From positions 2,272,001-2,336,000 of the forward strand of contig CAWGRW010000009.1 of NCBI GenBank assembly GCA_963825135.1: DNA of 64,000 bases, in the 5' to 3' direction. Both the position numbers and the translations under genes were made by a program. Position 1 is the stretch's first letter, and each line of letters starts with the position of its first letter. This document shows positions 46,990 through 61,645 of this stretch, piece after piece. The DNA is from an uncultured bacterium (GTDB taxonomy: Bacteria; Desulfobacterota_D; UBA1144; Nemesobacterales; UBA2774). The notes below the pieces were generated by a model, which had not been told where the DNA came from, did no database searches, and saw only the letters and a program-made list of their open reading frames with translations.

Positions 46990-49266
46990 TCACTTGAATT
47001 TGTGGATTGCCTCAAAAACACCGTCCCACTCTTCAGGCGGCGGTGTCTCCCGGTAAATTTGGCAACGCTCGGCCATCGTCCGGGAAGGACCGTCACCCGG
47101 CCATAGCCCCAGGGATTTGTTGAAGTTCTCCTGAGCTTCGCCCCAGCGTCGTTCGCGGTATGCTCCCAACCCCGCAGCATAGAAACCAAACGCTTTTTCT
47201 TGCTCATCGGGTAGCGATGTACCCTTCGTAGCCAGGAGCTCATAGATACGCACGGGCTGTACCCTGCCGACCACTTGCACCATGTCGACTTCCCGCAACA
47301 AGAAAGAAGTCGCGACCAACTGAGCAGTGTTCTCCCCGATGAGAATTTCCGTTCCATAAGCCTTATTGAGTCCCTCAAGGCGGGAACCCAGATTCACCTG
47401 ATCCCCCAGCACTCCATAAGCAAAACGATATTTGGACCCAAGGTTACCCACCAGCATGCGGCCGGAGTTTATACCGGTCCGGGCGATCATGGGCGGGCGG
47501 CCGATCTTGGCCCACTCTTCATTCAGCGCGTTGCGATGATCTCTCATGGCCAGGGCCGCACCACACGCTCTTTCCGCATGGTCGATCTGTTCAACAGGGG
47601 CGCCAAAAATAGCCATCAGCTCGTCGCCCACATACTCTTTGAGCATGCCCTGATATTCGAAGACCTGTTCTGTCATTCGGGCGTAGTATTCACTTAGAAG
47701 CACGATCATCTCGTGAGGAGCATAACGCTCCGACGCAGAAGTAAATCCTTGAAGGTCGCTGAATAAGACTGTCAGGACTTTTTCATCTCCTCCCAGTTTT
47801 AACCGCCCCGGATCTTTGAGCATTTCTTCAATCACCACGGGGGATACATAATGCGTGAAAGCCTTTTTGATTTTCTTGCGTTCGCGCTCCTCCGTTGCAT
47901 AGTAATAAACGGTAAGAACCATATAACTCATCGAAAGGGTCAACAGTGGATAGACGATATTAAGCCACACTCCGGCCTTTACAAAAAGCCAAAGGACAAC
48001 GGTGATATACAGGATGATCAGTCCGGAGACAAACAATAGCCCTTTGAAAGCACCCATCCGCGGTATGGCTATCCCGATCAGCGCTCCCAGTATAATTATG
48101 GCGAGCAGGTCGTAAATCTTTGTCCACCGGGGCTTCGAGATGAAATTTTGTGTCAATATGTTGTCGATGACATTGGCATGGACCTCCACACCGGGATACG
48201 CAGGGCTGAAGGGTGTGCTCCTCAGATCATAGATTCCCGTGGCTGTGGCCCCAACAAGCACGATCTTACCTTTGAAAGTCCCCTTGGCGAACCTCCCGCT
48301 GACTATATCGCTGATCGAGAGATGAGGAAAGGTTTTTGGCGGCCCAAGGTAGTTAATAAGCAGTTGACCGCTTTCGTCGGTCGGTATGAAACGGTCTCCC
48401 ATCTGGATCCCTTCCACTCCGTAGCGACCGACCTTAACCATCAGTTGAGGTTTGTCCAGATAATGCCAGGCACACAGAACCGCAAGAGGAGGAAAGATAT
48501 CCTCGCCGTACTGTATGGCGAGCGGCATCCAGCGGAGGACACCGTCCTCGTCACTTCGCAGAGTAAAATAACCCGAAGAAGCCGCTACTTTGGTAAAGAT
48601 TTCGAGATTACTCTCGGGGGCATAGGCTCTAATGAAGGGGACAGAATCGATTCCTTGTTCCTCATAGAGTACGAAAGGGTATTTTGAAGCGCTGATGCGC
48701 TTGAGCTGTCGGTCTATCTCGCTCTGTTCGATACTATAATCGAGGTCGGCTTCGCTCATGTGAAAGAAATATCCAAGGACTACTTCAGCAGGCGAATTTT
48801 TTATGGCGACGGCCAGGGCCATGTCGTTATCGGCTCGCTTTTTGCTGTTTTGTATGAAGTCGGCCAGTCGTGGGTGTTTCCCATCCAGAGCATCGACTTT
48901 CTGACTAAATTGATTGATAAACTCCAGCTGGGAGTTCTCATCCGCCTCAAGGAAACCTATATCGAAACCGATAACTTTGGCTCCGTCTTGTGATAGGACG
49001 TCCACGAGAGCAGCGATCTTGGACCTGGGCCAGGGCCAGCGCCCTTCGCTATCGAGGCTTTTTTCATCTATTACCGCGATTACGACTGCCGGTGAGGGCG
49101 GCAACTGACCGCGAGATAGAAAACGGAGGTCGTAAGTTTTCAATTCGATCAGGTCGAGGATCGTCGTCCTCGCCAGGAAGAGCGCTATAACAACCAGGAT
49201 TGTGCCTAGTGTCAGAGAGACAGGATTTGTCGATGAAAGAGATTTAAAAAATAATTTCATAGGCAC
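46990..49266 (-). CDS. CHASE2-domain class III nucleotidyl cyclase, probably guanylyl-type
   Basis: IDEKSL..GRWPWPR and PGVEVHA (CHASE2), 3 TM helices, FSDLQGFT, EYVGD, YGVLGDQVNLGSRLE. Confidence 0.93.
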   Translation of the reverse strand: MPMKLFFKSLSSTNPVSLTLGTILVVIALFLARTTILDLIELKTYDLRFLSRGQLPPSPAVVIAVIDEKSLDSEGRWPWPRSKIAALVDVLSQDGAKVIGFDIGFLEADENSQLEFINQFSQKVDALDGKHPRLADFIQNSKKRADNDMALAVAIKNSPAEVVLGYFFHMSEADLDYSIEQSEIDRQLKRISASKYPFVLYEEQGIDSVPFIRAYAPESNLEIFTKVAASSGYFTLRSDEDGVLRWMPLAIQYGEDIFPPLAVLCAWHYLDKPQLMVKVGRYGVEGIQMGDRFIPTDESGQLLINYLGPPKTFPHLSISDIVSGRFAKGTFKGKIVLVGATATGIYDLRSTPFSPAYPGVEVHANVIDNILTQNFISKPRWTKIYDLLAIIILGALIGIAIPRMGAFKGLLFVSGLIILYITVVLWLFVKAGVWLNIVYPLLTLSMSYMVLTVYYYATEERERKKIKKAFTHYVSPVVIEEMLKDPGRLKLGGDEKVLTVLFSDLQGFTSASERYAPHEMIVLLSEYYARMTEQVFEYQGMLKEYVGDELMAIFGAPVEQIDHAERACGAALAMRDHRNALNEEWAKIGRPPMIARTGINSGRMLVGNLGSKYRFAYGVLGDQVNLGSRLEGLNKAYGTEILIGENTAQLVATSFLLREVDMVQVVGRVQPVRIYELLATKGTSLPDEQEKAFGFYAAGLGAYRERRWGEAQENFNKSLGLWPGDGPSRTMAERCQIYRETPPPEEWDGVFEAIHKFK

Positions 49267-50302: not shown

Positions 50303-53300
50303 TTACGGAAGCGCCAGTGTAACCCGGGCGTAGAACATCCTTCCCGGCTGAATGCGCGGATTGTCGACGTCCACCTCAAAATAATTGAACTTTTGGTCAA
50401 AGAGATTCGTTGCTCCTACGGTGATGAAACCGTACCGCTTCGGCAGACGGTAATAGATCGCTGCATCGACTATCCAGAAGTTATCTTCGCCGGACACAAA
50501 ACCGTCTCCGTCCGGCGACAGAAAATCCCCGTCCTGGTTGAGGTAAGTCACGGTGAAAGAAGAACCCAAGCCGGAAGGATGGAAGAAATTGACCCCCAGG
50601 GGGACACGATTCGTATTCAGCTCTTTTGGCTGGTCGGTCAAACCCTGAGTCTCAAATCGCTCGAATATATACTGCGCTCTGAGAGCAAACCACGGATGTG
50701 GAGCCCAGAAGAGGTAGGCAAGGCCCAGATACTCGTTTACGTCCTCGTTCCGGATCGGAGGATTTTCAGGATCGACTGTAAAATCCAAGAATGGAGTATT
50801 CAGATCCCTCTTGGAAAATTGTACCCCCCCGAAAAAGTCTTTTGGGAATTTCTGATCGATGGCCCCCCCAAATACCCAGGATTCCGTTCCGTTTACATCG
50901 TCGAAGAATTGGTTGAAACCGGCGACCTGCGTCGGCTCCAGGGTCTGGTCCGTAATCAACGTTCTCTTCAAAACCCTGAATACAGCGGCGCGTAATGTCG
51001 TAGCCTGAAATGGGTTCCAGGTAATACCGAATTTCGGGTTGAACTGGTTTTTATCCCCGACGTCGGGACTGTCGCCGCTCAAGAAGTCGGCGCTTGCCCC
51101 GAGAGTAAACGTCACATTCTCCAGGGGGTTGATGTAAGAGTATGCGTACACATTCAGGTGTTGGAGATCCGTACTCGTGGTGGACTGCGCAACGATGGGT
51201 CCGTCGGGAGGTGGAATATCAATCGTGATGGTAGTGTCGATCCTTCCGTTTATGTCGAAATATCCCGCGCCGGTAACAAGGTTTACGTATTGCGAGCGGT
51301 AAAGGTGCTGGGCCTCGGCGCTATAAGCGTCTTCCGGCCTTACTGCGTCAAAGGAGCCAAGCTTATCCGTTAAATTAAAATCTGCCTTCTGATATGTAAA
51401 GTTGGCTATCAGGACCGAATTCGGTGAAAATGCGTGCCGTCCCCCAATCCGGAAGTAGTTTCTCTCTTCCTTGTTTCTCAACCCGGGGAGGAAGTCATCG
51501 GGAAAGAATCTGAGTGCGAGGTCCCCCAGCTCTGTATTTCGATACCTGTACTCTGCTTGAATGCTTGTTTTGTAAGAGAGTTCCAGCTGGACATAAGCGG
51601 TTGCGATTTGATCGGTCTGGTCGTCGTTTGCTCTGAACCCGTCCGTGTCAAATCGAGAATAACCCGCGCTGAAGCTGGCCTTATTATATATGCCTGAGAC
51701 GATGCCTTCTCCGGCCCAAGTATCATTTTCACCGACAAGGCCGCTCGTGAGCAGCGTTACCTGGTTACGGTTAAACAGCGGGTTGAACTCATCGAATGAC
51801 GCAGCCCCCGGGCCTTCGGAGGAGATTAAGAAGAGATTGCTCTCTGCGAGCCGGGGCTGAATAGGGGTGATGTTGATCGGCTGAAGCAGTTGGGACTGTA
51901 GCAGCTCGCTGACCCTGGCTATCTCGTGACGGGGTAAAACGGCATATGAATCTGCCAGGAACCGGTGGGCGGAAAAGCTCGCAGGATCGATGTTAACCGA
52001 TTTCCATCCTTCCACGAGGGCAAGCTGCTGGAAGCTCAGATCGGAGTATATTCGGGCAAGGCCGGCACTTCGCGCGGCCAGGTCCGAATCGAGCAGCAGA
52101 CGCGACCTATAGACCGCCCTGTTGTCGTTTAATTCGATGGATTTTTGCAGGTTATGCAGGGCCTCGACCGGCCTGTTTGTAGTCTGTTTCGCTATCGCAT
52201 CGTAGAACCACGGTGTTGGGTCCAGGGGATCCAGTTTCTTGGCGGTTTCGTACTCACGCACGTCCAGCTTGGTGCGTTTTTCTTCAAAGTAGGTTTTACC
52301 AAGATAGCTTCTGACAAGGGAGTTGTTGGGGTCAAGGCTTGCGGCAATCTCGATTTCCCTGCCTCCGCCATGCAGATCGCCATCCCGTATCATTGCCAGA
52401 CCAAGACCCAGCCTCGGGAGATAATCAGCCTGATCGAGGGCAATCGCTTTTTCAAATGAGTCCTTTGCCTGTTTTGTATCGACCTGCGTCAGATAGGCAA
52501 AGCCTAAAACTGTTTGCGTTCTCGAGAGATTCGGCTCCAGGGCTACTGCCTTCTGTGCCGCTTTGAGTGCTTTATCCAGATCGCCGAATGACGACCAGAT
52601 CTCCGCCAGCCGTGCCCACGCCAGCGCGTTTTTAGGATCCAGTTGCACCGCTTTTTCGAGGCTTGCTCGAGCGCCTTTCAGGTCAAAACTTGCCTGCTGT
52701 GCATATGAAAGGGCTATCTCTGCCGTGGCGGAGTCGGGATTCGTCTCGACGGCCTTCTCCGCAACCTCAAGCGCTTTATCTTTCTCGTTCTGCACAATGT
52801 AGATAATTGCTTCAAGCGCTAAGGCGTCGCCATACGTCGGGTTCAGACTCAGGGCCCGCTTGATATCTGCACCCGCCTCATCAACCCGTCCTACGGCCAG
52901 AAGCAGTGAGGCTCGATAAGCAAAAAAGCGCGGGTCACGGATATCCTCGGGAACATTCTTAATGCTGTTGAAGGCTCCCTGAATATCCCCGCTTATGTAA
53001 AGCTCGATGGATTTACGGACCATTCCTTCCCAGTCCGCACCGGCATGAAATTCATCAGGGCGGAGATAAAGGACGGGCGGATAGTACAATGTCCATTGGA
53101 CGGCATCCCTCGGACGCGCCACGATACTTAGCACCGGCGCTTTCCCGGCCTCGGCAACGGCCGATTGGCCGCCGGTAAGAGTCAGGCTTCCTGCATCGTT
53201 AGAGGCCACAACCGTCCCTTCAAAAGTAGACAGTAGAGTCTTGTCTTCTTCAACGTTTACCAGAAATTCTGTTCCCCTGACACCGGCAGTGGTAAAGGGC

Positions 53301-53692
53301 GTATGCACCTCCAGGCTGCTGGGGCCGCTGCTGAAGAAATGTGCGGCTCCCTTGATCATGTCTACCACGCTGGTCCGTTCTTCCTTTACGCCTTCGAGGG
53401 TTATCGTAGTATTTTCATTAAGGCGGATTACGGATTTCTCAAGCAAGGTTACGTCGGCACGGCTTTTATCCTGCACCCGAATCTTATCTCCGGGGCAGTA
53501 TGTGTCATTCAATTTAACCGGCTGCCAATTCGTTTCACCCACCTTTTGCGCCTCTACGGTTCCTTGGACCGAGACCACTTTTGCAACCGACTTCTCACAC
53601 GTCTCTGCGAACGCGGCATGGGAGTATAGAAAAGCCGACAAGAAGCTTGCACCCATGATAAAGCGCAAATAATAGAGATGCCTTCTCTTCAT
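50303..53692 (-). CDS. FecR + TPR + outer-membrane beta-barrel protein (NsrA-like architecture)
   Basis: Signal peptide, FecR motif TPFTTAGVRGTEF, many TPRs, C-terminal amphipathic strands ending NLFD...PGRMFYARVTLALP. Confidence 0.88.
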   Translation of the reverse strand: MKRRHLYYLRFIMGASFLSAFLYSHAAFAETCEKSVAKVVSVQGTVEAQKVGETNWQPVKLNDTYCPGDKIRVQDKSRADVTLLEKSVIRLNENTTITLEGVKEERTSVVDMIKGAAHFFSSGPSSLEVHTPFTTAGVRGTEFLVNVEEDKTLLSTFEGTVVASNDAGSLTLTGGQSAVAEAGKAPVLSIVARPRDAVQWTLYYPPVLYLRPDEFHAGADWEGMVRKSIELYISGDIQGAFNSIKNVPEDIRDPRFFAYRASLLLAVGRVDEAGADIKRALSLNPTYGDALALEAIIYIVQNEKDKALEVAEKAVETNPDSATAEIALSYAQQASFDLKGARASLEKAVQLDPKNALAWARLAEIWSSFGDLDKALKAAQKAVALEPNLSRTQTVLGFAYLTQVDTKQAKDSFEKAIALDQADYLPRLGLGLAMIRDGDLHGGGREIEIAASLDPNNSLVRSYLGKTYFEEKRTKLDVREYETAKKLDPLDPTPWFYDAIAKQTTNRPVEALHNLQKSIELNDNRAVYRSRLLLDSDLAARSAGLARIYSDLSFQQLALVEGWKSVNIDPASFSAHRFLADSYAVLPRHEIARVSELLQSQLLQPINITPIQPRLAESNLFLISSEGPGAASFDEFNPLFNRNQVTLLTSGLVGENDTWAGEGIVSGIYNKASFSAGYSRFDTDGFRANDDQTDQIATAYVQLELSYKTSIQAEYRYRNTELGDLALRFFPDDFLPGLRNKEERNYFRIGGRHAFSPNSVLIANFTYQKADFNLTDKLGSFDAVRPEDAYSAEAQHLYRSQYVNLVTGAGYFDINGRIDTTITIDIPPPDGPIVAQSTTSTDLQHLNVYAYSYINPLENVTFTLGASADFLSGDSPDVGDKNQFNPKFGITWNPFQATTLRAAVFRVLKRTLITDQTLEPTQVAGFNQFFDDVNGTESWVFGGAIDQKFPKDFFGGVQFSKRDLNTPFLDFTVDPENPPIRNEDVNEYLGLAYLFWAPHPWFALRAQYIFERFETQGLTDQPKELNTNRVPLGVNFFHPSGLGSSFTVTYLNQDGDFLSPDGDGFVSGEDNFWIVDAAIYYRLPKRYGFITVGATNLFDQKFNYFEVDVDNPRIQPGRMFYARVTLALP

Positions 53693-53769: not shown

Positions 53770-55659
53770 TCACCATGAGAGCGTAGTGACTTCCCGCTCA
53801 ACTATCATAAGCATTCGGGAGAAATTGCGCAACAGATTTTGGAGAAGCGTCATCTTCACCGTGGGATTCGTTTCACCCAGCTCATCGAATGCAGTCGTAG
53901 AGAGTAGGTAGCACTCTACGTGTTTATCGGCACGGACGTCTGCTGACCGTACCGTGCGGTTCACTACCGCAATCTCACCGAATGCCATACCGGGAGAAAG
54001 GGTCGATAACCGTTTGATCTGACCGTTAGGCAGATCGACTATAACACTAACTTCACCGCTCATGAGCAAGTAAATTTCATCCGCCGGCTCTCCCTTTCGT
54101 ACTATGAGCTCTCCGGGGTCGTAACGTTTGCTCGTGAGCAAAGGTTCCAGGAACGCGACGGCTTCAGGCGCGAGCCCCCGGCAAAGGTCATGCTCGGCCA
54201 GTGTCACCGACTCAAGAGAGCTGTCCTCGGGTTGCTGACTGGCTATCAAACGGTTCTCGCACCACTCGATGGCAATATCCATATCAGGGAAAATGTGCAG
54301 CCAAGCCTCCTGCTGATCATCGGTGTTAAGCTGCTCTTCTAAAAATCTGACAAAATTCGGGTGCTTCTGTAAGTTCACCAATAAAAGGTGTTTTCCACAA
54401 CTCTCGAAAGTCTTAATTAGTTCGAGCAGGGTCTGCGCGGACGAATCCTCAATATGTGTTACTCGCTTGAAGTCGATAACAGCTATGTCTGTCGTATCGC
54501 TAACATCGACTATCCTGCGGACCGTCACTTCCACAGCGGAAAAAACAAGATCACCCTGTAACTCATATACTTTCGCCCGCATGCCCGATTTATCGAGAAT
54601 TTCCGCATCACGCTCACCACGTAGTCGCTTGGACCTGATCTTGGAGACATCGTACTGTGCCCGAATCGCAGCACGCGAGGAACGCGGAACGCGAAGGCAG
54701 TGCAGGTTAAAATCCTTCGAAAGGTTCTTGCAAACCTCAATCCCTCGGACGCTGTTCCCGCGTGCATCGAGAGGAGGCGAGAAAACGCCGATCCCGGCTT
54801 GCCCCGGCATAACCGCCATTATTCCTCCTGACACGCCGCTCTTTGCGGGTATGCCGATCCAGTACATCCACTCACCCGCGTAGTCATACATACCGCAAGT
54901 GGTCATGATGCTCATTATGTTCTCAACGAGTTCGTCGCGAATTGCGCGCTCCTTCGTAAGCGGGTTGATTCCGCCGTTCGCCAAAGAGGCCGCCATCAAG
55001 CTCAGGTCTCGACAATCAATGGAGATTGAGCACTGCCGAAAATAGAGATCGAGCGCTATATCAGGATCTTCGCTCAGTATGTTGAAGTTACGTAGCATAT
55101 GACCGATGGCACGGTTACGATGGCCTGTTTCTCTCTCGGACCTGTACACAGTGGCATCTATGGAAAGCTTGCGGCCGGCGTAGACGGAGAAAACTCCCAA
55201 GAGACGATCCAACTTGTCCTTGCCGGAATTTCCGGCCACTAGAGACGTTGTAGCGATAGCACCGGCGTTGATCATGGGGTTGAACGGACAGCCGGTTTCC
55301 GGCGCGAGGCTGATCGAGTTGAAGGCATCGCCGGTCGGCTCAACCCCAATCTTGTCGAGCACCGCCTCTATGCCTCGATCTTCAAGAGCAATGCCATACA
55401 CGAACGGCTTTGAAATCGACTGAATCGTGAAGGGCTGACGAGTATCGCCGGTTTCGTAGACCCGGCCGTCGGTGGTAGCGATGCTGATACCAAACCAGTT
55501 AGGGTCCGCCTTAGAAAGCTCCGGGATATAGGTAGCGATCTTTCCGTCTTGCAGCTTCGTGCATTTTGCGTGCAGGCGCTCTAGGTACGCCTGAATGGGA
55601 GATTTGACTTGATGGCTCTCTCCTGTGTTCCTGCTTTGCACCGCGCGTCCTAACAGCAT
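53770..55659 (-). CDS. glsA: Glutaminase A fused to STAS and cyclic-nucleotide-binding domains
   Basis: YIPELS, QSISKP, NPMINAGAI, PAKSGVSGG, GNSVRG; STAS IDFKRV; cNMP FGEIA..RSADV. Start chosen from the RBS and promoter. Confidence 0.93.
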   Translation of the reverse strand: MLLGRAVQSRNTGESHQVKSPIQAYLERLHAKCTKLQDGKIATYIPELSKADPNWFGISIATTDGRVYETGDTRQPFTIQSISKPFVYGIALEDRGIEAVLDKIGVEPTGDAFNSISLAPETGCPFNPMINAGAIATTSLVAGNSGKDKLDRLLGVFSVYAGRKLSIDATVYRSERETGHRNRAIGHMLRNFNILSEDPDIALDLYFRQCSISIDCRDLSLMAASLANGGINPLTKERAIRDELVENIMSIMTTCGMYDYAGEWMYWIGIPAKSGVSGGIMAVMPGQAGIGVFSPPLDARGNSVRGIEVCKNLSKDFNLHCLRVPRSSRAAIRAQYDVSKIRSKRLRGERDAEILDKSGMRAKVYELQGDLVFSAVEVTVRRIVDVSDTTDIAVIDFKRVTHIEDSSAQTLLELIKTFESCGKHLLLVNLQKHPNFVRFLEEQLNTDDQQEAWLHIFPDMDIAIEWCENRLIASQQPEDSSLESVTLAEHDLCRGLAPEAVAFLEPLLTSKRYDPGELIVRKGEPADEIYLLMSGEVSVIVDLPNGQIKRLSTLSPGMAFGEIAVVNRTVRSADVRADKHVECYLLSTTAFDELGETNPTVKMTLLQNLLRNFSRMLMIVEREVTTLSW

Positions 55660-55688
55660 ATATCCCCCTGTATTGGTACTCAACGGTG

Positions 55689-55703
55689 GCAATATGGATG
55701 CCA
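55689..55703 (-). promoter_or_regulatory. Putative sigma54 promoter of the glsA operon
   Basis: Minus strand TGGCATCCATATTGC (GG-N10-GC), about 30 nt upstream of ATG 55659. Confidence 0.7.
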
Positions 55704-55875
55704 GTGGAAAGAATTCGTAATCTACCATTATAAGGAGGGACGAGTAATATAAAGAAATTGCGCGTAAGGTCTGCTAAGAACGAATAAATATTTAACAGAT
55801 GAGATGGCAGGAAAATAATCCTATCAGTTATGTATCTGATCATTTGTGCTTAGGTTAAATTACTCTGTGCGAAAA

Positions 55876-57336: not shown

Positions 57337-57594
57337 TCAGAGCATCATGCTCAACTTAAGCTCACGTACAGGAGGCAGCCAAATCACGTCACAGTACAAC
57401 AATTTCCCTTTGTTGTCATAATGGCAATCTAGGCAAAGCCTTCCGTCATCACTGCATTTCATTTCTTGCGGAATTATAACCTGACCATCCGTACGGTCGA
57501 CCTTGCCCGTCTGAAGCAAGTAGCGCTCACCCATCTTGTCGAGCGAGAATTCTGCGGTAAATCCTGGAATAGCCATTTTATACAATTCGCTCAC
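57337..57594 (-). CDS. Precursor-like small peptide 3 (PGFTAE leader, 4-Cys core)
   Basis: MAIPGFTAEFSL..Y...VIIPQ then EMKC..C..C..C. SD AAAGGAGG. Start may be GTG 57594, TTG 57585 or ATG 57576. Confidence 0.75.
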   Translation of the reverse strand: MSELYKMAIPGFTAEFSLDKMGERYLLQTGKVDRTDGQVIIPQEMKCSDDGRLCLDCHYDNKGKLLYCDVIWLPPVRELKLSMML

Positions 57595-57720
57595 CTCCTT
57601 TCGGATTCTTGCACATACCTAAAATTTTCACACACCTCACGGTGCATATTTGCAGCACATCCCGGTTTCCCCCCTGTTCATCGCATCTCAGGCGGGGCTT
57701 GAGTGAAAGAACGGTTCTTC

Positions 57721-58017
57721 TCACCAAGGCCAAATGCATCGCGTGCATGGTGTTTCGCAGCAATCCCAGTGACAAATGGGGTTACATCTCATGTGATATT
57801 CGCAATTGCAACACCAGCTGTCCCAGCAGCCCCAAGCGTTTAAGCCGCCTACCCCTCCTAACCCCCCCAAGCCGCCACCAACCCGTATTTGTGAAATGAC
57901 TCTTTGCTCTCCGCTACTACAACCTTGAGTCGCTACAGACTGGTAGCGCCTGCTCGTCTTGTAGAGTGAAGTATCTGCGGTAAATCCCGGAATAGTCATT
58001 TTATACAATTCGCTCAC
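57721..58017 (-). CDS. Precursor-like small peptide 2 (PGFTAD leader, Gly linker, 10-Cys/6-Trp core)
   Basis: MTIPGFTADTSL...RVISQ IRVGGG...NAWGCWDSWCCNC...PCTRCIWPW. Confidence 0.82.
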   Translation of the reverse strand: MSELYKMTIPGFTADTSLYKTSRRYQSVATQGCSSGEQRVISQIRVGGGLGGLGGVGGLNAWGCWDSWCCNCEYHMRCNPICHWDCCETPCTRCIWPW

Positions 58018-58143
58018 CTCCTTTCGGATTCTTGCACATACCTAAAATTTTCACACACCACACGGTGCATATTTGCAGCACATCCCGTTTTCCCCACCGT
58101 TCATCGCATCTTAGGCGGGGCTTGAGTGAAAGAACGGTTCCTC

Positions 58144-58443
58144 TCACCAAGGCCAAATGCACCGCGTGCATGGTTCGCACACCTGCTGCTGACACTCGCA
58201 TACATAACGGCCGTCTCCGGTAGGCCAGCAGGGGCCCCAAGCAACACATCTGCAGCATTCAGACTCCCAGCAGCCCCAAGCGTTTAAGCCGCCTGCCCCT
58301 CCTACCCCCCCCAAACCGCCACCAACCCGTATTTGTGAAATAACTCTTTGCTCTCCGCTACTACGACCTTGAGTCGCTACAGACCGGTAGCGCCTGCTCG
58401 TCTCGTGGAGTGAAGTATCTGCGGTAAATCCTGGAATAGTCAT
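58144..58443 (-). CDS. Precursor-like small peptide 1 (PGFTAD leader, Gly linker, 10-Cys/6-Trp core)
   Basis: SD GGAGGT 7 nt before ATG; paralog of 57721-58017. Confidence 0.85.
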   Translation of the reverse strand: MTIPGFTADTSLHETSRRYRSVATQGRSSGEQRVISQIRVGGGLGGVGGAGGLNAWGCWESECCRCVAWGPCWPTGDGRYVCECQQQVCEPCTRCIWPW

Positions 58444-58476: not shown

Positions 58477-59412
58477 TTATCGGTCATAGTACGGTGATAA
58501 CTTGCTGACCAGGAATGGAAATTCCTCGGTCACATCCACGCGAATAAAGAACTTTTCGGTGACATCGGTATTGCGGTTCGTGAAAGAGAATATTACCTCA
58601 ACGATTTTGCGCGTGCTGCTGAGAGGCGAAGGACGCACCTCAACCGCTGTCAAAGATTGGTTTTGAGCGAAGGCTTCTGCCGCCCTGGCGTAGATTCCAC
58701 TGCATCGCACCGCTGAATAGTTTAGGGCGCGATGTTCATCTGTCGCTCCCCCATTATCAGCCATCTGCATTATCCTCAGGAACAGTTCCTCTGCAGCGGG
58801 TGTGAAATCTTTTGTGGCAATTTCCTTTGGTTTTGGAATAGACTTTATCAAAGAGTCGATGTCGAATGAATACATCTGGTCGAACACTACAATGGGAACC
58901 ATAAGCCCATTGCACATCTCAGGCGGGGCAATTGGTCCCCTTAAGCCAATCACCACATCAATATCTGTGAGACGCGAAGAGTGTAGGGAGTCCACCAGCT
59001 GATCATAGCTCGTTTGGTCGCGAGGAAGTAGTACGTAGGTTTCCAAACCCTCAATGGTAAACACCCAACATAACTGCCGCACAAGGTAGCGGTTCTTTGG
59101 CTCAGACAGAATCTTGTGAAGGGCCTGCCGGTCTGTGAGCCCGGCTGTATCTCCTCGTCCGGTGGCTTGGGCAAATTCCTTTTCCACCGACAGCCGTGGA
59201 CAAACCGCGTTGACTCTGCCAAGTGCATATATGTAGGAAGGGGGCGTAGAAGCAGTTCCGTCTCCACAAGTGGGGCAGCTTCCCTGGTCGGTCTGCGGAG
59301 AGATAGTCGTTTTTGCATGACCATTGCCAGGAGATTTAGAAATTGCCAATGTGTCCTTCATATTTACAGCTTGGTCTCCCAACTGTTCTTTCACTTCATC
59401 ATTCTGTTCCAT
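58477..59412 (-). CDS. Stand-alone PatA/PatG C-terminal DUF domain protein
   Basis: YIYALGRV, LCWVFTIEG, CNGLMVPIV, GATDEHRALNY and DVTEEFPFLVSKLSPYYDR match cyanobactin protease C-termini. RBS GAGGAG before ATG 59412. Confidence 0.88.
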   Translation of the reverse strand: MEQNDEVKEQLGDQAVNMKDTLAISKSPGNGHAKTTISPQTDQGSCPTCGDGTASTPPSYIYALGRVNAVCPRLSVEKEFAQATGRGDTAGLTDRQALHKILSEPKNRYLVRQLCWVFTIEGLETYVLLPRDQTSYDQLVDSLHSSRLTDIDVVIGLRGPIAPPEMCNGLMVPIVVFDQMYSFDIDSLIKSIPKPKEIATKDFTPAAEELFLRIMQMADNGGATDEHRALNYSAVRCSGIYARAAEAFAQNQSLTAVEVRPSPLSSTRKIVEVIFSFTNRNTDVTEKFFIRVDVTEEFPFLVSKLSPYYDR

Positions 59413-59494
59413 AATATTTCTCCTCTTTTTGAGATATATTTGAAAGACTCTGTGTATCCATTTACTCGGGGCACATCGCAATTCCTCTCTACAT

Positions 59495-59686
59495 TTAACG
59501 CCGCCCGGAGAGAACTATCCATCGGTTCAGCGCCGCGGCACGACGTTCGCAGCTGCCGCATTGCCTGATTCCGACCGCGGTTGTTGCTCGCTTGATCACG
59601 TCCCCAAGCCCGATGTCCTCATCGGCGGTGAATCCCGGAAGTCGCACTCTGTAAGGCCGGCCTTTCCTTGTCTCATCTTTTTTCAT
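59495..59686 (-). CDS. Small CxxC protein with LPGFTAD motif
   Basis: RVRLPGFTADEDIGLGDVIKRAT..GI..CGSCERRAAALN. Overlaps the protease stop; RBS AGGAG. Confidence 0.8.
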   Translation of the reverse strand: MKKDETRKGRPYRVRLPGFTADEDIGLGDVIKRATTAVGIRQCGSCERRAAALNRWIVLSGRR

Positions 59687-60641
59687 GTTGCTTTCTCCTA
59701 AAGTTGACCTTCATGACCTGATATGCTCTCTCAACATCCAATAAAGGCGGGACAACCGTAGCCCGCCGCCGGGCGTGTGCTTGTGCTGCCGCTAGTTTCA
59801 CTTGAGCTGAGGTTGCGGAGGGAAATTCGGACCATAGAAGTGCGATTGCACCTGTTACAAATGGCGCTGCAGCGCTCGTCCCTCCGAATGTGTGTGATTT
59901 GCCATTAGTTCCCAAACTTGTAATGTTGTCACCAGGGGCGCTTAGACCTCTCCTGCCTATCGAGCTTCCGAGATTCGAATAGATAAGCGGTCTTCCTTGA
60001 TTGTCACATGCAATAACAGGAATTACCCAGGGATGGCGCGTGATAGCGGAGCTTCCGATTGTTCCTTGATTTCCCGCAGCCGCAACAATAATAGTTCCGC
60101 GCATTGCGGCATAATCTAGAGATTCTTCTAATTTGCGCTCACCCTTAGACGAAGGTTGTGCAAGGGCAGCACTCAGGTTGATCACGTTTGCGCCTGCATC
60201 AACTGTCTCGATAATCGCCTCTGCTAGTTCATCTGGAGTCGCACTTGGCATTTGTCCGTTCTCAGACGGCTCTGCGAAGATCGGACGTACCAGCAGGGTG
60301 CAATCGGGACATATTGATGGGGCTTTGGAACCTCGCTCTCCGCACAATATACCTGCTACAAATGTTCCGTGCATACAGGCAGTGCTGCTCGCAAGTGCGC
60401 ACGCACATGAAAGTTTCCCCGGGATCTCACGAATATTCTCATTGGAGAGGTTGGGGTGGTTCAAAAAGACTGGTCCGTCTATTAGACCAATCATAATCTC
60501 AGGCTTACCTCTGCTGAGTTTCATAAGCCCAATGAGATTTAGTAAATCCAGGGGGCTTATTGAGTTTGAACTATTAGGCGATTGTTCTGAGGTACTTCGA
60601 GTAGTCTGATCCTCAGTAAACCCGCATTCGAGTACAATCAT
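59673..60641 (-). CDS. Stand-alone PatA/PatG-like subtilisin (S8) protease
   Basis: Triad IDGPV (Asp), HGTFVAG (His), GTSAAAP (Ser), oxyanion AAAGN. No signal peptide. Confidence 0.93.
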   Translation of the reverse strand: MIVLECGFTEDQTTRSTSEQSPNSSNSISPLDLLNLIGLMKLSRGKPEIMIGLIDGPVFLNHPNLSNENIREIPGKLSCACALASSTACMHGTFVAGILCGERGSKAPSICPDCTLLVRPIFAEPSENGQMPSATPDELAEAIIETVDAGANVINLSAALAQPSSKGERKLEESLDYAAMRGTIIVAAAGNQGTIGSSAITRHPWVIPVIACDNQGRPLIYSNLGSSIGRRGLSAPGDNITSLGTNGKSHTFGGTSAAAPFVTGAIALLWSEFPSATSAQVKLAAAQAHARRRATVVPPLLDVERAYQVMKVNFRRKQHEKR

Positions 60642-61570: not shown

Positions 61571-61645
61571 TGGAGCCGACGCCCAGACTTGAACTGGGGA
61601 CCTGCTCATTACGAGTGAGCTGCTCTACCACTGAGCTACGTCGGC
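61571..61645 (-). tRNA. tRNA-Thr(CGT)
   Basis: GCCGACGTAGCTCAGTGGTAGAGCAGCTCACTCGTAATGAGCAGGTCCCCAGTTCAAGTCTGGGCGTCGGCTCCA. Confidence 0.97.

Follow-up and report, generated by a model that had tools for sequence, protein, structure and literature searches.

The three consecutive open reading frames (ORFs) described here lie on the minus strand of a 64-kb stretch of DNA (the window) from an uncultured bacterium, at positions 58144-58443, 57721-57999, and 57337-57576, all inside the region (57337-58443) that a first-pass annotation, made from the sequence alone, had singled out. Each encodes a peptide with a leader of 37 residues, by script count, of the pattern (M)xIPGFTA(D/E)xSL...RY...(V/I)I(S/P)Q, followed by a core that contains Cys. 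Upstream on the same strand lie, in order, a PatA-type S8 protease, a 63-residue protein with LPGF and CGGC motifs, and a stand-alone protein related to the PatG domain of unknown function (DUF), after which the three ORFs follow. These ORFs are probably ribosomal precursors, built from a leader of ~37 residues and a hypervariable Cys-rich core, and substrates of the split PatA-type cassette upstream of them.

Precursor peptides

Precursor peptide 1 (pep1; 99 residues, 58144-58443, minus strand) begins with the leader MTIPGFTADTSLHETSRRYRSVATQGRSSGEQRVISQ (58333-58443), which ends in VISQ, followed by a 62-residue core (58147-58332) with 10 Cys, 6 Trp, and 13 Gly and a stop codon at 58144-58146; its ATG is preceded at 8 nucleotides (nt) by GGAGG. 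Precursor peptide 2 (pep2; 57721-58008, minus strand) starts at TTG 58008, giving MYKMTIPGF, or at ATG 57999, with the leader, 37 residues from the ATG and with one additional Cys compared with that of pep1, ending in VISQ at 57889, and the core (57724-57888) comprising 55 residues with 10 Cys and 6 Trp. Precursor peptide 3 (pep3; 57337-57585, minus strand) starts at TTG 57585 or ATG 57576, its leader ending in IIPQ at 57466 and its 42-residue core (57340-57465) containing 4 Cys, the first of them at +4. In both pep2 and pep3 a GGAGG lies 8 nt ahead of the TTG three codons 5' of the ATG, which would give MYKM(T/A)IPGF; the ORF list places the start of pep2 at GTG 58017, with TTG 58008 sitting 8 nt past the GGAGG. 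Both N-terminal forms are common among the best library matches to the family, the Pro of PGF being found at index 6 in 66 of 142 peptides and at index 3 in 59.

The IPGFTA(D/E)xSL and RY elements and the VISQ or IIPQ leader ends reported by the first-pass annotation are borne out by the ORF translations, and a script returned the same counts as it had given, with 10 Cys and 6 Trp in the cores of pep1 and pep2, and 4 Cys in that of pep3. Pep1 and pep2 share these two clamps and a Gly-rich linker. The proposal that the Cys and Trp counts are fixed holds for this pair and fails as a constant of the family, with relatives of the core having fewer Cys (8 in P0001). Outside the three peptides first noted, a fourth PGFTAD-bearing ORF lies at 59495-59686. 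The window, translated in all six frames, contains PGFTA[DE] at four places, each of them within the cassette, and pep1 and pep2 are the only 2 of 326 ORF-like segments of 60-130 residues in the window to contain at least 10 Cys together with at least 5 Trp. The confinement of the motif to the cassette and the rarity of such Cys/Trp richness argue that the pattern is not due to chance.

In DNA sequence, pep1 and pep2 are near-identical over the leader, the Gly-rich linker, and NAWGCW, and again from PCTRCIWPW into ~130 nt of 3' flank, with the 85-100 nt between these blocks unrelated. The pair is therefore a mosaic in which the middle has been replaced. The spacers that follow pep2 and pep1 (57577-57720 and 58000-58143, minus strand) are near-identical duplicates over ~130 nt. 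Folding of the spacer between pep1 and pep2 (147 nt, 58000-58146) was no better than that of shuffled sequences (z = -1.16), and promoter-like (7 vs 5.6) and terminator-like (5 vs 4.0) signals were at the level of chance. Sequencing runs matched to this DNA comprised DNA runs only, each with a share of 0.15 or less, and none of RNA.

Cassette partners

The S8 (subtilisin-family) peptidase of PatA type (322 residues, 59673-60641, minus strand; Pfam Peptidase_S8, E = 2e-25) is the proposed leader peptidase, and no signal peptide was seen in it by eye. Its closest solved structures are the N-terminal cyanobactin proteases PagA and PatA (4H6W, 4H6V, and 3ZXX; E = 9.5e-34 to 4.9e-31), with the PatG macrocyclase 4H6X matched at E = 1e-11 and ordinary subtilisins at 8.6e-17 or weaker. 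The Asp, His, and Ser motifs of the protein align with those of PagA and PatA.

The fourth PGFTAD-bearing ORF encodes the small basic protein of 63 residues (59495-59686, minus strand; RVRLPGF...GLGDVIKR...GI..CG(G/S)C..RAAALNRW), the start of which overlaps the stop of the S8 gene by 14 nt and which in the window carries LPGFTAD. The consensus of 79 distinct sequences is RVRLPGFIxDExIGLGDVIKRATxAxGIKPCGGCERRAAALNRW. The small protein has no match past threshold in Pfam, NCBIfam, or the PDB, and the protein-atlas neighbours of both the small protein and pep1 are only unnamed clusters without Pfam families. Two weak matches obtained for the small protein, Gly_rich_SFCGS (E = 0.016) and EF_0830 (E = 0.0057), fall well short of the cut-offs and were taken as chance.

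The stand-alone PatG-DUF protein (58477-59412, minus strand) starts at ATG 59412, or at TTG 59481 in the ORF list; residue numbers here follow the 312-residue translation of 58477-59415. It matches both Pfam domains of the PatG DUF, PatG_D (PF18047; E = 1e-28, 100.4 bits, cut-off 27) and PatG_C (PF18065; E = 2.5e-33, 115 bits, cut-off 25.9), and it matches the solved PatG DUF, 4UVQ, by phmmer (E = 1.6e-4). In an AlphaFold2 (AF2) model with a mean predicted local distance difference test score (pLDDT) of 74.9, residues 1-56 are disordered, and a Foldseek search with this model returned 4UVQ as the sole match at E ≤ 0.001 (E = 5.7e-13, TM-scores 0.63/0.74). An alignment of 36 sequences from many phyla has an average column identity of 65%, and the disordered N-terminus usually carries a CPTCG motif. 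The residues invariant in the family include Cys116, Cys168, Asp220, and His228, at which the one solved PatG DUF has Ile, Phe, His, and Asp, a comparison resting on a single sequence and offering a lead only. It is a matter of speculation that the CxxC motifs of the small protein (CGGC) and the DUF protein (CPTC) might jointly bind one metal or take part in thiol reactions. Complex prediction with DUF residues 55-312 (36-row alignment) and leader residues 1-48 (63-row alignment) gave a score of 0.25, with the mark at 0.32, which is evidence neither way. None of the three conserved cassette proteins has a family match to a transporter or shell protein in NCBIfam or Pfam. The cassette is a split PatA, with precursors that are not PatE-like.

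Distribution of the precursors and cassette

A word-based search with pep1 returned 7 proteins, including one (P0006) in which the same leader precedes an unrelated core. Scanning of metagenomes, soil metagenomes included, with the pattern PG[FY][TD]A[ED]xSL[YH] yielded more than 611 stretches, 247 of which were confirmed by tblastn, and 79 loci were retained, with 168 motif-bearing peptide stretches, often 2-6 in a row. In these loci, whose contigs are mostly short, tblastn with the upstream proteins of the window found the S8 protease in 27, the small protein in 26, and the DUF protein in 46. A scan of genomes with the DUF protein, taking one genome per species, gave 189 confirmed relatives and 80 retained loci, of which 75 contain the S8 protease, 65 the small protein, and 69 at least one precursor as defined by a regular expression that misses variants such as PRF. 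The 151 motif-bearing stretches of the genome loci, together with the metagenome loci and the window, provide 305 unique complete peptides. The order of S8 protease, small protein, DUF protein, and precursors is constant, on one strand, in metagenome and genome loci alike.

A precursor profile built from 63 sequences, when searched against 1.84 billion cluster representatives, matched 4,939 of them at E ≤ 0.001, of which 117 reached E ≤ 1e-10. Of 148 sequences among the best 150 matches, 142 have the PGF motif as found by regular expression and 5 have a variant form, the remaining one (P0068) being an unrelated repeat protein; in the genome to which the window belongs, only the three peptides match the leader profile, with pep3 at E = 1.1e-13. 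The three peptides have no match in NCBIfam or Pfam at E ≤ 1. When 78 relatives were compared with NCBIfam (E ≤ 0.01), none matched in the leader and 2 matched a Cys-rich domain in the cargo, and 5 relatives compared with Pfam at E ≤ 1e-5 gave no match. In records of Nitrosospira multiformis, the DUF protein is entered as 'PatG domain-containing protein', and the small protein and the peptides alike as 'hypothetical protein' or 'uncharacterized protein'. A literature search, which did not cover subscription journals, found no paper on the leader, the cassette, or a split PatA outside cyanobacteria. The precursors form a very large, unnamed, and apparently undescribed family.

The genomic relatives of the DUF protein are mostly from Acidobacteriota, with further carriers among Cyanobacteria (including Pseudanabaena), Planctomycetota (Brocadia and Gemmataceae), Nitrosospira multiformis, Nitrotoga, Streptomyces calvus, and Amycolatopsis taiwanensis, as well as metagenome-assembled genomes labelled Methanoperedens and Nitrososphaerales. 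The 7 cyanobacterial loci examined are without the small protein and have the S8 and DUF proteins in separate ORFs. Within the phylum of the window, the DUF protein is present in 4 of 120 genomes, that of the window included, and in none of the 9 genomes of the same genus or the 32 from the family. Such a scattered occurrence, combined with identities of 56-79% between phyla, suggests horizontal transfer. A tRNA-Thr gene (CGU; 61571-61645, minus strand) lies ~930 bp upstream of the S8 gene, and this adjacency, taken with the patchy distribution, suggests that the cassette is an island inserted beside a tRNA gene.

All-against-all clustering of the ORFs of the 80 genome loci found no extra gene family outside the cassette coordinates common to more than 6 loci. 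In 6 of these loci a 249-residue ORF of no assigned family directly follows the DUF gene, with its representative (L083:5936-6682) having no NCBIfam match. Two PGF-type leaders occur in a single reading frame in each of the library matches P0069, P0070, and P0073, through either a fusion of precursors or the merging of two genes in gene calling. In three strains of N. multiformis (L134, L136, and L138) the first precursor differs at only a few positions, in leader and core; the cores are thus stable within this species though hypervariable between lineages.

Leader/core boundary and proposed cleavage site

The leader/core architecture proposed in the first-pass annotation is well supported, in that hundreds of unrelated cores, from the metagenome and genome loci and from the profile matches, carry this one leader. 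Across 268 non-redundant leaders, information is high over P-G-F-T-A-E-x-S-L-(Y) and, 15 residues past this block, at a Tyr, is low for ~15 residues, and rises again at V/I-x-P/S/A-Q/A, the last conserved block. Here position -4 is mostly Val (186) or Ile (64), position -2 is Pro (203), Ala (24), or Ser (23), and position -1 is Gln (142), Ala (80), or Ser (20). Past -1 there is a weak preference for Leu, Ile, or Phe at +1, information then falls to background, and only the Cys columns stand out afterwards. Counting from the Pro of PGF to position -1 gives a spacing of 34 in 89 of 134 peptides, as in all three peptides of the window, and one of 32-36 in 130 of the 134. Single loci mix PQ, PA, PM, and AQ leader ends, and an analysis of covariation between the -1 residue and the protease was dropped for this reason.

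It had been anticipated that conservation among homologues would drop right after the Gln. Such a drop is found in the 268 leaders as a whole and in those ending in PQ (n = 192) or PA (n = 73), with 3.2-3.3 bits at -4, 0.9-1.3 at +1, and 0.6-0.8 or less from +2. It is not as sharp in the SQ subset (n = 34), which holds pep1 and pep2 and in which 1-2 bits persist along a Gly-rich stretch to at least 14 residues past the Gln.

The V/I(-4)-x-P/S/A(-2)-Q/A(-1) block resembles the sites of known S8 leader peptidases. The cytoplasmic enzyme ElxP needs Leu or Val at -4 and Gln at -1, with Ala at either position costing ~10-fold in activity, and its recognition sequence is given as (D/E at -5)-(L/V at -4)-x-x-(Q at -1), with PatA-like enzymes cutting after G(L/V)E(A/P)S, according to a 2023 review of leader peptidases (PMC10885120); PMC4282754 likewise places cleavage by PatA after GLEAS. 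Since the block fits the rules of both ElxP and PatA, a cut by the S8 protease would be expected there. Cleavage at Gln37 is accordingly put forward as a prediction from conservation, the linked PatA-type protease, and the published S8 specificities.

The semi-conserved stretch of the SQ subset may indicate a later or second cut, and is the basis of an alternative that we consider unlikely, wherein the leader is cut off at a point further downstream or by two successive cuts, pep1 and pep2 mature near NAWGCW as happens with double-glycine leaders, and VISQ is only a recognition element or the first cut. The retention of 1-2 bits from +1 to +14 is as this alternative would have it, as are the position of the first Cys, at a median of 17 residues past the Gln in the SQ subset vs 6-7 in the PQ and PA subsets, and the AF2 model of pep1, which is disordered to residue 54 and ordered from ~55. 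However, 12 members of the NAWGCW...PC(T/E)RCIWP(W/Y) core family have the Gly-rich stretch, whether the leader ends in VISQ, AIPQ, or IYPA. Both the linker and the NAWGCW block therefore belong to the core family, with the leader stopping at the Gln or Ala. Furthermore, neither a C39 peptidase nor an ATP-binding cassette (ABC) exporter is conserved with the cassette in the 80 genome loci, and a second site would have no room in pep3, as in most of the family, where just a few residues separate -1 from the first Cys.

Cysteine content, core fold, and cargo size

Cys makes up 12.1% of core residues compared with 0.5% of leader residues. The suggestion that even Cys numbers reflect disulfides, originally drawn from the three peptides, extends to the whole family, with the core Cys count being even in 224 of 239 peptides derived from the loci (odd in 12 and zero in 3, the commonest counts being 4, 6, and 8) and in 129 of the 134 best library matches. 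Pairing into disulfides would be expected to give parity this strong, and by these counts the cores are probably disulfide-locked.

Alternatively, the cores could be cytoplasmic metal-thiolate binders, similar to metallothioneins or metallophores, in which Cys ligates a metal rather than forming disulfides. The Cys share of the cores would suit this role, the cassette encodes no export route, and both partner proteins carry a CxxC motif (CGGC in the small protein and CPTC at the N-terminus of the DUF protein). We nevertheless find this explanation improbable, given that metal sites need no parity and the even counts, with 4, 6, and 8 the commonest, match the expectation for pairing. Moreover, hypervariable loops between fixed clamps rich in Cys and Trp appear more toxin- or defensin-like than metal-binding, and no metal-handling gene is linked to the cassette in the 80 genome loci or in the surroundings of the window.

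The AF2 model of pep1, built from a 12-row alignment, has residues 1-54 at pLDDT below 50 and, from residue 51, ten-residue blocks averaging 54-78, with strands at 57-67, 72-74, 80-82, and 86-96. In this weak model the NAWGCW and PCTRCIWPW clamps would be the outer strands. The first-pass annotation had suggested a defensin- or knottin-like fold; a fold search with the model against 48,161 chains gave a single match with a Z-score of 2.4, which is not meaningful.

The leader is also found on larger cargo. PGF leaders are fused to large Cys-rich proteins in L088:5627-7216 (530 residues), L124:6065-7447 (461 residues), and L140:7228-7881 (218 residues), the latter two matching the NCBIfam MXAN_6577-like cysteine-rich family. 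With the leader present on proteins of 218-530 residues, it evidently serves protein-sized cargo as well. This raises the further alternative, in our estimation very improbable, that the PGFTAE domain is a permanent targeting or docking tag that brings Cys-rich cargo to a complex of the DUF and small proteins, with the S8 protease having another role. Cargo of 20-487 residues, the longest in the L088 protein and in the L124 protein with its MXAN_6577-like domain, would be compatible with a tag, and the LPGF motif is common to the small protein and the leaders. Against this, the known job of this type of protease is leader removal, a protease-like site lies exactly at the conservation boundary, and none of the three conserved proteins has a family match to a transporter or shell protein.

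Comparison with known systems

The cassette shares several features with cyanobactin pathways, in that PatA and PagA are the nearest solved relatives of its S8 protease, its partner has the PatG_D/PatG_C fold of the cyanobactin DUF, and clusters contain several precursor genes with variable cores. The putative cut site is also aliphatic at -4 and Ala/Pro-like at -2, in the manner of G(L/V)E(A/P)S (PMC10885120). PatA carries the DUF at its C-terminus, whereas here the protease and DUF are separate genes, usually with the small protein between them. There is a single S8 gene and no PatG macrocyclase, heterocyclase, or PatB/C in the cassette, and none of these is conserved in the 80 genome loci. 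The leader is unrelated to that of PatE, in which recognition sequence (RS) II, G(L/V)E(A/P)S, and RSIII (AYDG-like) flank short cores; here such flanking is absent, with no conserved C-terminal recognition sequence seen and Cys-rich cores of 20-487 residues. A 2015 review (PMC4663559) records cyanobactin clusters from cyanobacteria only and assigns the DUF no role, in contrast to the many phyla spanned by the present cassette. The system therefore has the protease and DUF in common with cyanobactin pathways, lacks their other defining features, and is not a cyanobactin pathway.

ElxP, which acts in the maturation of a class I lanthipeptide, is likewise a cytoplasmic S8 enzyme, with its Leu/Val at -4 and Gln at -1 paralleling the Val/Ile and Gln seen here (PMC10885120). 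Unlike ElxP, the present protease is accompanied by no lanthionine-forming enzyme (LanB or LanC) in the cassette or conserved in the 80 loci, and it is nearer PatA than other solved S8 proteases, a comparison among structures that do not include ElxP.

One leader serves many cores in the prochlorosins, with their Nif11/NHLP leaders, and in the double-glycine bacteriocins. Such combinatorial RiPPs (peptides made by ribosomes and modified after translation) and bacteriocins resemble the present family in joining a conserved leader to hypervariable cores, with several precursors per locus and shared machinery, but the cassette has no linked modifying enzyme or C39-ABC exporter and its leader is unrelated. 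Double-glycine bacteriocins differ further in that their leaders end in GG or GA, and not in V-x-P-Q/A, with no conserved transporter in the 80 loci or near the cassette here. A conserved pro-region, a hypervariable mature part, and a fixed even Cys framework are also features of cone-snail toxin precursors and defensins. These are an analogy only, being eukaryotic, secreted through the endoplasmic reticulum, and unrelated in sequence, and no fold match was found here.

Proposed maturation pathway

In the pathway that we think likely, in which the ORFs are precursors processed by the split PatA-type cassette, the N-terminal PGFTAE...Y block would dock to one of the partner proteins, and the S8 protease, acting in the cytoplasm, would read the aliphatic residue at -4 and the small residue or Pro at -2 and cut after Gln37, or after Ala in many relatives. 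The released cores would then start with IRVGGG... in pep1 and pep2 or EMKC... in pep3, and their even Cys would pair into disulfides, with the two invariant clamps of pep1 and pep2 probably forming paired beta-strands that frame the variable loops. The mature peptides may act outside the cytoplasm, and thus after export, as a diversified set for competition or signalling.

Several observations weigh against this interpretation in addition to the conservation past the Gln in the SQ subset. The S8 protein scores 110.5 bits with the NCBIfam PatA/PatG model TIGR03895, far under its cut-off of 421, so that PatA specificity cannot simply be transferred to it. The 80 genome loci show no conserved exporter, immunity gene, or modifying enzyme around the cassette, and the window has none of these from ~17 kb below the cassette coordinates to ~3 kb above them. 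Odd Cys counts occur in 12 of the 239 cores, the core model of pep1, from 12 sequences, is only moderately confident, and the cargo, with a range of 20-487 residues, includes at its longest proteins rather than peptides.

A bolder version, which appears unlikely as a whole, is that the stand-alone DUF is the active ancestor of the cyanobactin DUF and could act either in docking the leader, as a chaperone, or in folding, as a thiol-active catalyst. With the CGGC protein and the PatA-type protease as its partners, it would convert the pool of ribosomal precursors to disulfide-locked mini-proteins, a bacterial and archaeal counterpart of conotoxin and defensin diversification that has been spread horizontally. 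The idea of an active ancestor stems from the 65% column identity across phyla and from the invariant Cys116, Cys168, Asp220, and His228, which are missing in the one solved PatG DUF.

Should the proposed pathway hold true, thousands of unannotated Cys-rich peptides would belong to one maturation system, distributed among bacteria of soil, sediment, and freshwater and among some archaea, and PatA-type proteases would be far more widespread than cyanobactin pathways. The components, a single protease with one or two helpers and a leader of 37 residues, would constitute a simple and portable toolkit, with the family offering a large untapped source of stable disulfide-rich peptides and a ready pair of leader and protease with which to make them. 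The cassette would also provide a natural setting in which to learn the role of the cyanobactin DUF, which the 2015 review calls unknown (PMC4663559).

Genomic surroundings

The neighbours of the cassette comprise glycosyltransferases, a cyclase, a glutaminase fusion, a hydrolase of the metallo-beta-lactamase (MBL) fold, and the tRNA-Thr gene. Downstream of the cassette are a CHASE2 adenylate/guanylate cyclase (46990-49266, minus strand) and a 1129-residue FecR-TPR protein (50303-53692, minus strand). The glutaminase fusion (53770-55728, minus strand) is a protein of 652 residues that combines glutaminase, STAS, and cyclic-nucleotide-binding domains, an unusual regulatory fusion.

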